A program made the position numbers and the translations under genes. The notes beneath the pieces are model-generated. The model saw only the letters and a program-made list of their open reading frames with translations, did not search any database and was not told the origin of the DNA. Positions 1-64,000 of a stretch of DNA of 64,000 bases are shown here, piece by piece; within the stretch, counting starts at the first letter, position 1; the number at the start of each line of letters is the position of its first letter. Origin of the DNA: Gammaproteobacteria bacterium (GTDB lineage Bacteria; Pseudomonadota; Gammaproteobacteria; JABABF01); the NCBI GenBank assembly GCA_965215045.1, contig OZ244031.1, positions 1,066,626 to 1,130,625 on the forward strand. The letters are read 5' to 3'.

Positions 1-2
1 CC

Positions 3-563
3 GCCGCTGCCGCGGGTTTCCAGCTGCGCATCGCCAGCGGTTTTCGCAGTTTCTCCCGCCAGCGGCAGATCTGGAACGACAAGCTGGCCGGCCGGCGCAC
101 CCTGCTGGATGCCCGGGAAAAACCGCTGCGGGCGGCGGCACTCCCGCCGCGGGAACGGGTCTTCGCCCTGTTGTACTGGTCGGCCCTGCCGGGTGCCTCG
201 CGCCACCACTGGGGCACCGACCTGGATGTCTATGACGGTGCGGTGCTGCCGCGGGGCCACCAGCTGCGCCTGACCCGCCTGGAAGCGGACACGGTGTTTG
301 CCGGTCTGCACCGCTGGCTGGACCAGCGCATCGCCAGCGATCGGGCCTTCGGTTTCTACCGCCCGTACCGCGGCCAGGGCGGGGTGTCGGCGGAGCCGTG
401 GCACCTGAGCTACCGGCCCCTGGCCCGGCTCTGCGAGCCGCGCATCACTCCCGGTTTCGTCCGCCGGGTACTGGGCGAGCGGAAAATTGCCCTGAAGCGG
501 GTGGTGTTGGACAATCTGCCACAGATCCACGAACGGTTTATCGCTCCTTATCACGAGGCCTAA
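3..563 (+). CDS. D-alanyl-D-alanine carboxypeptidase family protein (peptidase M15, VanY-like); 5' end outside window
   Basis: Frame-3 translation from the window edge reads ...FQLRIASGFRSFSRQRQIWNDK...SRHHWGTDLDVYD..., matching the M15/VanY zinc-peptidase SxHxxGxAxD region. Stop TAA at 561-563. Confidence 0.65.
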   Translation, partial: AAAAGFQLRIASGFRSFSRQRQIWNDKLAGRRTLLDAREKPLRAAALPPRERVFALLYWSALPGASRHHWGTDLDVYDGAVLPRGHQLRLTRLEADTVFAGLHRWLDQRIASDRAFGFYRPYRGQGGVSAEPWHLSYRPLARLCEPRITPGFVRRVLGERKIALKRVVLDNLPQIHERFIAPYHEA

Positions 564-565
564 AC

Positions 566-60606: not shown

Positions 60607-60778
60607 CGTGTATGTCTCGCTCTCCCCGGTGGCGGCTCACAAAATGGCACCCATCATACCAGTATGACTGCGGGCCGTCTTGCGCCCGACGCTCTTGTCA
60701 AGCAGCACCGGCGCGGGGCGGCACCCCGGCACCCCGGCCCCGCTGTTCCACCCGCAGTTTTGCGCCGGCCGGTGTTCT

Positions 60779-63624
60779 CTACTTGCCGGCAGTTTTGCGT
60801 TTCCTTGCGCGCAACATCCGGTCCAGGAATTGCGCGGTATGGGATTTTTTGTATTTGCAGAGTTTTTCCGGGGTGCCGGCGGCGACGATGCGTCCCCCGC
60901 CCGCACCTCCTTCCGGCCCCAGGTCGACCACCCAGTCGGCACTCTTGATGACATCCAAGTTGTGTTCGATGACCACCACGGTATTGCCCTGGTCCCGCAA
61001 CCGCAGCAGCACCTGTAACAGTTGCCGGATATCGTGAAAATGCAGGCCGGTGGTCGGTTCGTCGAGAATGTACAGGGTGCGCCCGGTGCTGCGTTTGGAC
61101 AGTTCCCTGGACAGCTTGATGCGCTGTGCCTCCCCGCCGGACAGCGTGGTCGCCGGCTGTCCCAGGCGGATGTACGACAGCCCCACCTCGTCCAGGGTCC
61201 GGAGTTTCTGGGCGATGGCCGGCACCGGGCCGAAGAATTCATGGGCGTCCTCCACGGTCATCTCCAGCACATCGTAGATATTCTTGCCCTTGTAGAGCAC
61301 TTCCAGGGTCTCCCGGCCGTAGCGTTTGCCGCGGCAGACATCGCAAGGCACGTAGATATCCGGCAGAAAATGCATCTCGACCTGGATCATGCCGTCGCCC
61401 CGGCATGCCTCGCAGCGTCCGCCGCGCACGTTGAAGCTGAAGCGTCCGGGCTTGTAGCCGCGCGCCCGCGCTTCCTGGGTGCCGGCGAACAGTTCGCGCA
61501 CCGGCGTAAACAGGCCGGTGTAGGTGGCGGGATTGGAGCGCGGGGTGCGCCCGATCGGACTCTGGTTGATGACGATGCACTTGTCCAGGTGTTCCAAGCC
61601 CTCGATCTTCCCGTATTCCAGGGGCACGACATTCTTGCTGCCGTTGAGTTCCCGCGCCAGGATCGGGAACAGGGTGTAATTGATCAGGCTGGATTTGCCG
61701 GAGCCGGATACGCCGCTGACGCAGACAAACAAGCCCAGTGGCAGCTCCAGGTCGACTCGACGCAGGTTGTTGCCGCAGGCGCCCTGCAACTTGAGCAGGG
61801 CCCCGGGATCGCGCTGCGTGCGCTGTTCCGGGACCGGGATCTGCTTGCGTCCGGAGAGGTATTCCCCGGTCAGCGACTCCGCTTTCCCGGCCACGGTCGC
61901 AGGCGACCCCTGCACCACCACGGCACCCCCGTGCACCCCGGCGCCCGGCCCCATGTCGACGACGTGGTCGGCACTGCGAATCGCCTCTTCGTCATGTTCT
62001 ACGACCAGCACGGTGTTGCCCAGGTCCCGCAGCCGGAACAGGGTATCCAGGAGCCGGGCGTTGTCGCGCTGGTGCAGGCCGATCGAGGGTTCGTCCAGGA
62101 TGTACATCACGCCGACCAGGCCGGCACCGATCTGGCTGGCCAGGCGGATGCGCTGTGCCTCGCCGCCGGACAGGGTTTCGGCACTGCGGTCCAGGCTCAG
62201 GTAGTTCAGCCCCACGTCAGCCAGGAACCGCAGCCGGTTGTGAATTTCGCGCAGGATTTTGCCTGCCACCTGGCGCCGCTGGCCGCCAAAACGCATGTTC
62301 TCGAATAATTGCAGGGCCTCGTCCACCGGCAGGGCGCAGATGGAGGGCAGGTTGATATCGTTGATGAACACGTGGCGCGCGGCCTCGTGCAGGCGTGCGC
62401 CGTTGCAGGTGGCGCAGGCGCGGGTGCTGATCAGTCGCTGGAGTTCCTCGCGCTGTCGCAGGGAATCCAGCTTGTGCAGCCGGCGTTCCAGGGTGGGGAT
62501 GATGCCGTCAAAACTGCGCCGCCGCCGGTACACGCTGCCGCTCTCGGAGACGAAACGGAACTCGAGCACCTCGCCGCCGTTGCCGTGCAGCAGTATCTGG
62601 CGGTGCTTCTTCGCCAGCTTGCCGAAGGGGATATCGATTTCGAAACCGTAATGGCGGGCCAGGGATTTCAGCACGTGAAAGTAGTAGGGATTGCGCTTGT
62701 TCCAGCCCTGCACGGCACCCTCGGCCAGGCTCAGGGCGGGGTCGACCAGGTGCTCCTCGTCAAAATACTGCCGCACTCCCAGGCCATCGCACTCCGGGCA
62801 GGCACCGGCCGGGTTGTTAAAGGAGAAGGTGCGCGGCTCCAGCTCGTCGATGCTGTAGCCGCAGCGCGGGCAGGCGTGGCGCGAGGAGAACAGCAGTTCT
62901 TCGCCGTTTCCCTCCAGTGGTGCGACGATAGCGAGGCCGCCGCCGATCTGCAAGGTGGTCTCCAGGGATTCTGCCAACCGCGCGGCATTGTCCGGGCGCG
63001 GGCGGAAGCGGTCGATCAGCGCCTCGATGGTGTGCTTGCGCTTCTTGTCCAAGGCCGGTGCCTGGTCGAGGTCGGTGAGGATGCCATCGATGCGTGCCCG
63101 CACGAAGCCGTTGCGGCGCAATTCCTCCAGTGCGTGCAGGTGCTCGCCCTTGCGCTCGCGGATGATCGGTGCCAGCAGCATCAGGCCCTTCTCTTCGGGT
63201 TCTTCCAGCACGCGGTCCACCATCTGGCTCACCGTGCGTCCGCCGAGGTTCAGCCCGTGCCGCGGGCAGCGCGCTTCGCCGACCCGCGCAAACAGCAGGC
63301 GCAGGTAGTCGTAGACTTCGGTGATGGTACCCACCGTGGAGCGCGGGTTGTGCGAGGTGGATTTCTGTTCGATGGAAATCGCCGGGGACAGCCCCTCGAT
63401 GTGGTCGACATCCGGTTTTTCCATCATCGACAGGAACTGCCGTGCGTATGCCGACAGGGACTCTACGTAGCGGCGCTGCCCCTCTGCATACAGGGTATCG
63501 AAGGCCAGCGAGGATTTGCCGGAACCGGACAGGCCGGTGATGACCACCAGCTGGTCCCGGGGAATGTCGAGGTCGATGTCGCGCAGATTGTGCGTGCGTG
63601 CGCCGCGAATCTGAATGGTGTCCA
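60779..63624 (-). CDS. uvrA: excinuclease ABC subunit A
   Basis: Two ABC ATPase modules with zinc fingers; colinear with E. coli UvrA from ...[61 protein letters not shown]... Start assigned to TTG 63624 (M-DTIQIRG by alignment); the table ORF continues upstream through a G-rich tract. Confidence 0.88.
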
Positions 63625-64000
63625 ATGGGGCAACCCCGGGATTTTTTAACAACAGGGCAGTATAGCCTTTTCCCGCACCGGGCACATACCGGGCTCCACT
63701 TTCGCCGCCCTGTACCCCACCGCCCCGACCGGCCTTCACCCCGCCGCCCACCCGGACTTCCAGCCGCCCGCCCGGCCTCCGCCCTGGCCTCCCGTCCCGC
63801 CGCCCGCCCGGCCTTTCACCCCGCCGGCCACCCCGGCCCGCCGCCCCGGCCCTCCGCCCTGTACCCCACCGCCCAGCCCGCCCACTCCGCCGCCCGCACC
63901 CGGTTTTTTTGCCCCCGCCCCAACTGTAGACGCATCCGGTTTTTTCCGTATAATGCGCCCCCACGGGTTCCCGTGATGCCCGCAGTGATCCGGTGTTTGT

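Follow-up and report, generated by a model that had tools for sequence, protein, structure and literature searches.

Why does an ordinary stretch of bacterial core genome carry a dozen or more minisatellites? The question is raised by 64,000 nucleotides of DNA from a gammaproteobacterium (contig OZ244031.1 of NCBI GenBank assembly GCA_965215045.1, forward-strand positions 1,066,626 to 1,130,625), hereafter called the window. By Pfam and NCBIfam scans the window is an ordinary core region, with 65% G+C and ~90% coding sequence. An original prediction, made from the sequence alone, listed 13 tandem arrays in it, called their density exceptional for such a region, placed many of them inside functional elements, and suggested a lineage-specific propensity for replication slippage, or else poor removal of the resulting duplications. 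Here, we show that the arrays are bacterial variable-number tandem repeats (VNTRs), or minisatellites, a known kind of feature present at an unusual density. We consider it likely that they are minisatellites born locally, through slipped-strand tandem duplication that is unusually frequent in this lineage, and subsequently filtered by selection.

Tandem arrays were called by Tandem Repeats Finder (TRF) on the full window and counted as merged arrays with a period of at least 7 bp. There are 53, 21, 14 and 12 arrays at TRF scores of at least 30, 50, 80 and 100, respectively. The chance model consisted of third- and fifth-order Markov sequences and 6-mer block shuffles of the window (n = 150 shuffles). 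These yield ~20-26 arrays at a score of at least 30, ~1 at 50 and 0 at 100; at a score of at least 80 they yield essentially none (a single array across 150). Rows scoring 30-49 are chance, whereas arrays scoring 80 or more are beyond it. As a biological control, we used 80 nrdA-centred loci from other gammaproteobacteria (1,605,270 bp, ~22 kb each, including 0.57 Mb with G+C >0.60), taken from an NrdA scan of GTDB species representatives, among the matches listed. At a score of at least 100, the density is 1.88 arrays per 10 kb in the window versus 0.087 in the controls, a ~20-fold difference (Poisson P ~1e-12), and the control subset with G+C >0.60 gives 0.088. No control locus has more than 2 arrays scoring at least 80; each third of the window has 4 to 6. 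About 3% of the window sequence is tandem array, and the density corresponds to ~190 arrays (TRF score at least 100) per Mb, provided that the window is representative. The excess over comparable gammaproteobacterial loci is thus real, and the claim of exceptional density is borne out by TRF, by the shuffles and by 1.6 Mb of control sequence. The units, of about 10-100 bp, lie head to tail, as is typical of VNTRs; copies are contiguous, with no spacers between them, unlike those of a CRISPR (clustered regularly interspaced short palindromic repeats) array.

Twelve of the 13 arrays listed earlier were reproduced in place, with small corrections. Among the corrections, the array at 9744 has a period of 71 bp rather than 70, and that at 33702 a period of 47 bp rather than 45. 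The thirteenth, given as two 17-bp copies at 48509, is not tandem. Here (48500-48567, + strand) a 17-bp direct repeat that includes the start region of galU, GCGTCGGCCATGAGCGG, is present as two in-frame copies, 51 bp apart; between the copies lies (GAGCGGG)x3, a 7-bp run of three units that is at chance level. The galU start region sits just downstream of the manC stop codon, and the pair gives galU two possible starts, with a 17-residue N-terminal extension. Three features were missing from the list: 57250-57344 (47 bp x2), 52102-52143 (21 bp x2) and a set of degenerate G-rich arrays at 63714-63891.

Did these arrays spread from one source, or did each arise in place? We compared all units by blastn with one another and with the window. 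Units of different arrays are unrelated, except for those of paralogous coiled-coil genes and those connected by one segmental duplication. Related units recurring across loci, the hallmark of the mycobacterial interspersed repetitive units (MIRUs) and of repetitive extragenic palindromic sequences and bacterial interspersed mosaic elements (REP/BIME), are not seen. Each array is built instead from its own local sequence, with units that carry a local start codon, stop codon, terminator-like hairpin, set of N-terminal codons or coiled-coil segment.

We begin with the arrays between genes and at gene boundaries. In the 176-bp spacer between argF and the ABC ATPase gene, a 41-bp array of 4.2 copies (11331-11501, - strand) fills the gap; its units open with ATGTCCC or CTGTCCC, and the last, partial unit provides the real ATG of the ABC ATPase (11337). 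Between the rsmJ stop codon (29164-29166) and tRNA-Gln (28802-28875) lie 3.1 copies of a 79-bp unit (28907-29148, - strand), each holding a copy of the rsmJ stop-codon region (GACGCCCCCTGAAG); the array terminates just upstream of the TACAAT box that precedes the tRNA. At the junction of pilN and pilO, where stop and start overlap as ATGA, there is a perfect 47-bp duplication (2.2 copies; 33702-33806, - strand) bounded by an 11-bp direct repeat, CGCGGCTGTGG. A G-rich array of 3.6 copies of 17-20 bp (GAGAGGGGGGGTGGCTT; 14799-14864, - strand) overlaps the stop codon and 3′ flank of a small coiled-coil gene, cc-A.

Downstream of the ABC ATPase gene and upstream of the nrdA promoter are 3.3 copies of a 71-bp unit (9744-9973, - strand), which consists of a hairpin (CCCCGGGGAA...TTCCCGGGG) followed by a T-run. 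From its sequence, this array looks like three to four tandem terminator-like modules placed after the ABC gene. Its predicted fold is no more stable than those of shuffled sequences (z = -0.02), and a simple terminator scan of the array flagged the last copy only. A relative with 91% nucleotide identity (JGI contig L081) has a single terminator-like hairpin and T-run, the homologue of the 71-bp unit's 3′ end, and its ABC-nrdA spacer is ~400 bp shorter. The adjoining region upstream of nrdA (9500-9700, - strand) is AT-rich and contains two TTATCCACA motifs, which resemble DnaA boxes, and a promoter-like site (TTGACG-17-TATTAT); the AT-rich region is conserved in L081.

A 12-bp array with a higher-order 24-bp period (3959-4145; ~15 copies, 83-90% matches) is intergenic, with the stop codon of pyrF (4198) on one side and the start of a SnoaL-family gene (3836) on the other. 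The 47-bp x2 array at 57250-57344 (+ strand; score at least 80) is non-coding, and a single unit, 91% identical, is found at 54725-54770, within a segmental duplication of the 3′ end of an epoxide-hydrolase gene. The degenerate G+C-rich arrays at 63714-63891, with units of 23-24 bp and TRF scores of 59-77, are intergenic and lie upstream of uvrA.

Arrays also extend into genes or lie within them. At the 5′ end of rnt, which encodes RNase T, a 12/24-bp array of 10.7 copies (17710-17841, - strand; 69-79% matches) encodes (V/A)D(K/Q)A repeats. These align with the N-termini of RNase T in relatives (MAADAGV or MAVDD), so that the array grew out of the gene's own N-terminal codons. The N-terminus of a PDZ-domain protein (ATG at 22900) contains an in-frame 18-bp array of 5.7 copies (22785-22888, - strand), which encodes a GTRGAG-like repeat of six residues and lies within the signal peptide, in its positively charged n-region; a JGI metagenome scan with this protein returned one relative, at 36% identity. 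In the linker of an open reading frame (ORF) resembling a PilO-PilP fusion, hereafter pilO-P, a 48-bp unit is repeated 2.2 times (33014-33120, - strand) and encodes 16 residues of the NAPPETAHTQTA type. A perfect in-frame duplication of 21 bp (LRATQRQ; 52102-52143, - strand) lies inside pgi. The other three coding arrays belong to coiled-coil genes. cc-A (14851-15207) has 2.5 in-frame copies of a 33-bp unit (11 residues, LHEExKKYSxx; 14956-15036, - strand) in its coiled-coil part, cc-B (56679-57080) has 3.5 perfect in-frame copies of another 33-bp unit (SDERHERAQKL; 56840-56954, + strand), and cc-C (57547-58215) has an in-frame 75-bp array of ~5 units (57701-58092, + strand; 75 bp x3.8 by TRF plus a 108-bp variant). 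The 108-bp period reflects one unit with an extra 33-bp sub-repeat, a sub-unit related to the cc-B array.

Of the 14 arrays scoring at least 80, six lie entirely in coding sequence and four entirely between genes, and the remaining four run across a gene end. Array bases are 53% non-coding, versus ~10% for the window overall, and about a fifth of the window's non-coding DNA is tandem array. In every one of the six wholly coding arrays the period is a multiple of three (33, 18, 48, 21, 33 and 75 bp), compared with two of the eight intergenic or boundary arrays (both 12/24-bp; periods of 71, 41, 17-20, 79, 47 and 47 bp are not divisible by three) (Fisher P = 0.009). This pattern of frame and location matches what is predicted if duplication is blind to function and is followed by purifying selection. 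The statement that many arrays lie inside functional elements needs qualification. Arrays do overlap the ends of genes, as had been noted for the ABC ATPase start, the rnt 5′ end, the N-terminus of the PDZ protein, the pilO-P linker, the pilN/pilO junction and the rsmJ 3′ end, but more than half of their sequence is non-coding and the sites are tolerant ones. Start regions are duplicated recurrently (ABC ATPase, pilO, galU, rnt and, outside the window, bamE), as would be expected if a duplication that spans a junction spares both genes.

We next turn to strains of the same species. Exact matches to AroB and bacterioferritin led to three contigs from independent short-read assemblies, 99.5-99.8% identical to the window: L085, an 18.6-kb contig of NCBI GCA_964348175.1, and L086 and L087, NODE contigs of ENA ERZ21849000. 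L085 is collinear with window positions 39391-20698. The two sequences differ by 43 single-nucleotide polymorphisms (SNPs; 0.23%), and every indel between them (one of +47 bp, one of +79 bp and one of 1 bp) falls inside an array. At the pilN/pilO junction the window has one more 47-bp unit, and both L085 and L086 carry a single-copy allele in which the direct repeat flanks one intervening segment (CGCGGCTGTGG-36 bp-CGCGGCTGTGG). In the 79-bp array, L085 has one unit fewer than the window. The 48-bp array of the window lacks one G (33100) relative to L085 and L086, which leaves pilO-P frameshifted in the window. Copy numbers of the 18-bp and 48-bp arrays are equal in the window and L085, and the 18-bp array contains 2 SNPs. 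L087 stops inside the 41-bp array, after three copies whose internal variants are unlike the window's; at its other end the G-rich 17-20-bp array is represented by a single unit. The 48-bp, 79-bp, 18-bp and 41-bp arrays are thus all recovered in independent assemblies. The original prediction had allowed that the repeats might collapse on re-assembly; they do not, and copy number does differ between strains, clearly for the 47-bp array and, with a caveat discussed below, for the 79-bp array. These arrays are real, common to the species and polymorphic, i.e., true VNTRs. Turnover is modest, with ~2 unit changes over four arrays alongside 0.23% SNP divergence. Short-read contigs tend to break at or inside arrays (L081 at its position 1, L087 at both ends, L085 at its ends); L081, for example, begins 2 bp ahead of the ABC gene's start codon, at the expected site of the 41-bp array.

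Are the arrays particular to this lineage? Three syntenic relatives with ~2-Mb genomes (L082-L084; ABC ATPase 61-63% identical) share the block argG-pyrC-rnt-MBL-SEC-C ... bfr-argD-argF-ABC, and in 63 kb of their sequence no array exceeds a TRF score of 61. In these relatives argF and the ABC gene overlap by 4 bp, versus the 176-bp array-filled spacer of the window, and pyrC and rnt overlap by 28 bp, versus an array-filled spacer of about 90-180 bp. Junctions of the window that are free of arrays (rnt/MBL, MBL/SEC-C and argD/argF) are as tight as those of the relatives. Two coiled-coil homologues gave access to contigs of the lineage that lie outside the window. L088 (12.5 kb, the recN-dnaK-dnaJ-dapB region) has five arrays with scores of at least 100. 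Among its arrays are a perfect 56-bp array of 2.4 copies (3202-3334), which repeats the start-codon region of bamE, and an in-frame 18-bp array of 5.3 copies (AGPGQQ-like; 6526-6620), which forms the C-terminus of an unannotated 274-residue protein encoded between recN and dnaK. L089 (4.2 kb, trp genes) has one array at this score. The repeat excess is thus a property of the genomes of this lineage beyond the 64 kb of the window, and lineage specificity is supported by array-free syntenic relatives and by two further loci that are equally repeat-rich.

How might such arrays form? In a first step, a short segment would be duplicated head to tail, most simply when the replicating strands slip and misalign between short direct repeats, independently of RecA. 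Further slippage, or unequal exchange between copies, would then lengthen or shorten the array. The process would be blind to function, with selection determining which products survive. Between genes or across junctions, arrays could persist because the outermost copies would still supply an undamaged stop and an undamaged start, which would make such duplications neutral. Within genes, only in-frame repeats would persist, and only in tolerant segments, such as the n-region of a signal peptide, a linker or a coiled coil. In a compact genome with overlapping genes, junction-spanning duplication would be almost the sole route to repeats that are, in effect, intergenic. We infer slippage from the unit-sized indels, from the 47-bp duplication with its 11-bp repeat and unduplicated allele, and from the partial terminal copies; to that extent they also support the slippage proposed in the original prediction. 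That the cause is raised mutational input, rather than weak purging, is suggested by the comparisons described below.

Several points weigh against this account. For the 79-bp array, the one-unit difference may reflect a repeat collapsed during short-read assembly, since the 242-bp array probably exceeds the read length. This concern applies far less to the 47-bp array, whose difference in copy number is robust: two assemblies agree, and a perfect 105-bp repeat of 2.2 copies should normally be resolved by k-mers >47. The 21-bp (pgi) and 47-bp (57250) arrays are among several that have no obvious flanking microhomology. The lineage DNA covered amounts to 64 kb plus ~17 kb, so the whole-genome density is an extrapolation. 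The repair and replication genes seen in it are limited to an intact-looking uvrA and the catalytic residues of rnt. Finally, these data are compatible both with a raised mutation rate and with weak purifying selection.

The last point bears on the main rival explanation, namely that tandem duplications arise at an ordinary rate and are poorly purged. A small effective population size, as in a host-restricted symbiont with a reduced genome, would let slightly deleterious duplications, of a kind purged from other bacteria, drift to fixation. The genome is apparently small, roughly 2.1 Mb, as a protein identical to the window's ABC ATPase is encoded on a contig of 2,082,957 bp. Gene decay or oddity is seen in the type IV pilus cluster and in the frameshifted 5′ end of rnt, and the organism is known only from metagenomes, with no close cultured relative. 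A literature search on repeat-rich metagenome-assembled genomes of symbionts turned up nothing specific. On the other hand, L082-L084 have the same genome size and synteny and yet have compact junctions without arrays. The coding arrays are strictly in frame, which indicates that selection is still effective, and array turnover between strains that are 99.8% identical also points to high input. The small, array-free relatives and the frame filter thus argue against weak selection as the sole cause, and we regard this explanation as rather unlikely.

Might the arrays be functional, and selected as copy-number-tunable regulatory modules or contingency loci, for example as serial terminators, repeated start regions, promoter-proximal arrays or surface proteins of variable length? 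They cluster at gene boundaries, where they duplicate terminator-like, start-codon and promoter-proximal sequence; their copy number varies between strains; the three coiled-coil paralogues of the window differ chiefly in repeat number; and rnt and pilO-P change frame through small indels in their arrays. Yet the units are mutually unrelated and absent from relatives, and the genes concerned are mostly housekeeping genes (argF, nrdA, rnt, tRNA-Gln, pgi, uvrA). Turnover is, by a rough estimate that takes its rates from general knowledge, orders of magnitude slower than at classical contingency loci. A boundary location is also predicted by a pure selection filter in a genome that is 90% coding. 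Selected function is an improbable explanation for the arrays.

Two further alternatives can be treated briefly. An artefact of long-read metagenome sequencing or assembly might be suspected, given that three arrays have copies that are 100% identical and that consensus errors could account for the 1-bp and 5-bp indels within arrays, but this reading is largely refuted, and very improbable, as four arrays recur in independent assemblies and the copies of most arrays have diverged (69-95% matches), a pattern that an assembler would not make up. Equally improbable is a dispersed, mobile minisatellite-like family (MIRU-like, REP/BIME-like or resembling miniature inverted-repeat transposable elements) inserted at many sites: the intergenic, within-operon locations and 40-80-bp units resemble MIRUs, as these are generally known, and coiled-coil gene cassettes with conserved flanks are dispersed in three copies in the window, but arrays at different loci share no sequence and their units contain the start or stop sequence of the local gene. 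A common origin of the arrays as a mobile element is ruled out by the all-versus-all comparison of units in the window.

If excess slipped-strand duplication is indeed responsible, what might underlie it? One possibility, which we put forward tentatively, is that the lineage carries a heritable change in the processing of slipped replication intermediates, such as loss of a 3′ or 5′ single-strand DNA exonuclease, a variant replisome or an impaired RNase T. Loss of mutS or mutL, which the original prediction proposed to check for, is an unlikely cause. Loops of a few nucleotides are what mismatch repair acts on, whereas the units here measure 12-79 nt. A mismatch-repair mutator would be expected to show a strong transition bias and many 1-bp indels in homopolymers, and the pattern of SNPs and indels between strains gives no positive sign of such a defect: transition:transversion counts of 36:7 and 10:6 (46:13 together) are unremarkable, and there is one 1-bp indel per 43 SNPs. 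Single-strand exonucleases (recJ, sbcB/exoI, exoX, xseAB) or replisome components are better candidates. According to PMC3942315, which cites Feschenko et al. 2003 and Dutra et al. 2007, tandem repeats are stabilised by the single-strand DNA exonucleases ExoI, ExoX and RecJ; RNase T of E. coli is reported there to trim bulged, structured DNA, such as slipped repeats give rise to.

Of such genes the window contains only rnt, and its state is of interest in this regard. At its 5′ end (17738-17863, - strand), a Shine-Dalgarno (SD) sequence, GGGAGG, and a GTG at 17848 open a frame of (VDKA/ADQA)n repeats. A tandem duplication of 5 bp, AAGGC (~17759-17768), puts this frame out of the RNase T frame, in which the only starts are internal GTG codons at 17750 and 17738, with no obvious SD sequence. 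The catalytic DEDDh residues of RNase T are conserved. The disturbed 5′ end could represent real inactivation, down-tuning or a consensus error, and it is a lead as to the cause rather than evidence for it.

The arrays can be compared with several known systems. They are most like the VNTRs used in multiple-locus VNTR analysis (MLVA) of Yersinia pestis, Bacillus anthracis, Xanthomonas and Burkholderia pseudomallei, which are likewise head-to-tail units of ~10-100 bp, both intergenic and in-frame coding, vary in copy number among close strains and are ascribed to slipped-strand mispairing. The difference is one of density, for which the baseline is the 1.6 Mb of control loci used here. MIRU-VNTRs of the Mycobacterium tuberculosis complex are also strain-variable tandem units of 40-100 bp, to be compared with the 41-bp argF/ABC and 47-bp pilN/pilO arrays of the window. 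MIRUs reportedly lie between genes within operons, with some unit ends overlapping the flanking stop or start codons. They differ, however, in that their units are related in sequence and belong to a single family dispersed over about 40 loci, whereas each array of the window has its own local unit. RecA-independent slipped misalignment in E. coli, as studied by the Lovett laboratory, offers parallels in the 47-bp duplication with its 11-bp repeat, for which both alleles are seen, in the unit-sized changes and in the hairpin units; that system is an experimentally defined mechanism in a model organism. Contingency loci of Haemophilus, Neisseria and Campylobacter also undergo reversible, repeat-mediated length changes in or near genes, and the frames of rnt and pilO-P are altered here. 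But those loci have 1-8-bp units, switch at very high rates and sit in surface, restriction-modification or virulence genes, in contrast to units of 12-79 bp, mostly housekeeping genes and modest turnover. In the window, moreover, frames are shifted only by secondary 1-bp and 5-bp indels within arrays.

Several features of the genes that carry arrays deserve mention. The coiled-coil genes form an orphan family whose members are cc-A (- strand), cc-B (+ strand), cc-C (+ strand), and genes at 10001-10411 of L088 and 3775-4143 of L089. The proteins have a conserved N-terminal part of ~50 residues, variable coiled-coil repeats and a C-terminal transmembrane helix, which is missing only in P0249, a member truncated by the end of its contig. 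The three paralogues in the window differ from one another chiefly in the number of repeats. The genes all carry a hairpin in the 5′ untranslated region and share a conserved sigma-70-like promoter (TTGACT-17-TACAGT), and they are scattered, as cassettes with conserved flanks, among housekeeping genes. A search of 5.8 billion proteins gave only three homologues, a JGI metagenome scan found none, and Pfam and NCBIfam searches gave only a sub-threshold match to CCDC90-like/DUF1640. Two of the three genes, cc-B and cc-C, lie in a patch of low G+C (54690-58300; 57-59%) that also holds a gene for a fusion of an N6/N4 DNA methylase with an IceA-like nuclease (55039-56433). The fusion gene is flanked by the segmental duplication of the epoxide-hydrolase 3′ end and its downstream sequence, in which 54690-54830 matches 57207-57370, and a chimeric epoxide-hydrolase fragment lies at ~57085-57221. 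The patch looks like a hotspot of insertion or duplication. The type IV pilus cluster (31499-34929, - strand; 4463-7847 in L085) is also atypical. pilM and pilN are fused (383 residues), PilQ is short in the window (443 residues, with no AMIN domains by Pfam), and PilO and a short PilP-like tail are encoded by one ORF of 302 residues in L085 and L086.

Otherwise, the gene content of the window is unexceptional. In order, it comprises pyrF, nrdB, nrdA, the ABC ATPase gene, argF, argD, grx and bfr; genes for a SEC-C protein and an MBL-fold protein, then rnt, pyrC and argG; the PDZ protein gene, an SDR gene, adk, hemH, selO, proS, tRNA-Gln, rsmJ, aroB and aroK; pilQ, pilO-P, pilM-N, ponA, hemC, hemD, rsmE, metF, ahcY, metK and a DUF192 gene; fabB, fabA, manC, galU, a phosphomannomutase gene, pgi, ispA and the epoxide-hydrolase gene; and finally the methylase/IceA-like fusion, two small coiled-coil genes, a SnoaL gene, two SDR genes and uvrA. 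The organism has no close relative in culture. Its NrdA is at most 67% identical to those of GTDB species representatives, among the matches listed, and the identity of AroB and the ABC ATPase falls to 59-64% beyond the species' own sequences.

What makes these arrays noteworthy is their density, the comparison with syntenic relatives that are free of arrays, and the pre-duplication allele of the 47-bp array. It is less common for a compact genome of ~2 Mb to have ~3% of a core region taken up by young minisatellite. Because gene order is shared with the array-free sister genomes, orthologous junctions can be compared directly, and L081 offers a single-copy counterpart of the 71-bp array. The lineage is therefore a natural setting in which to study how the birth of minisatellites is controlled in bacteria, and the arrays are ready VNTR markers for tracking strains of an uncultured organism. 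They also call for caution, both in short-read metagenome assembly, where contigs break at arrays, and in gene calling, as start codons are duplicated, N-termini are spuriously extended and frameshifts occur within arrays. If a heritable change in the handling of slipped intermediates does prove to be responsible, minisatellite birth in this lineage would be one to two orders of magnitude commoner than in its sister lineages, making it a natural "minisatellite mutator". Duplication across junctions would then separate overlapping, translationally coupled genes, and create new intergenic DNA in a compact genome.

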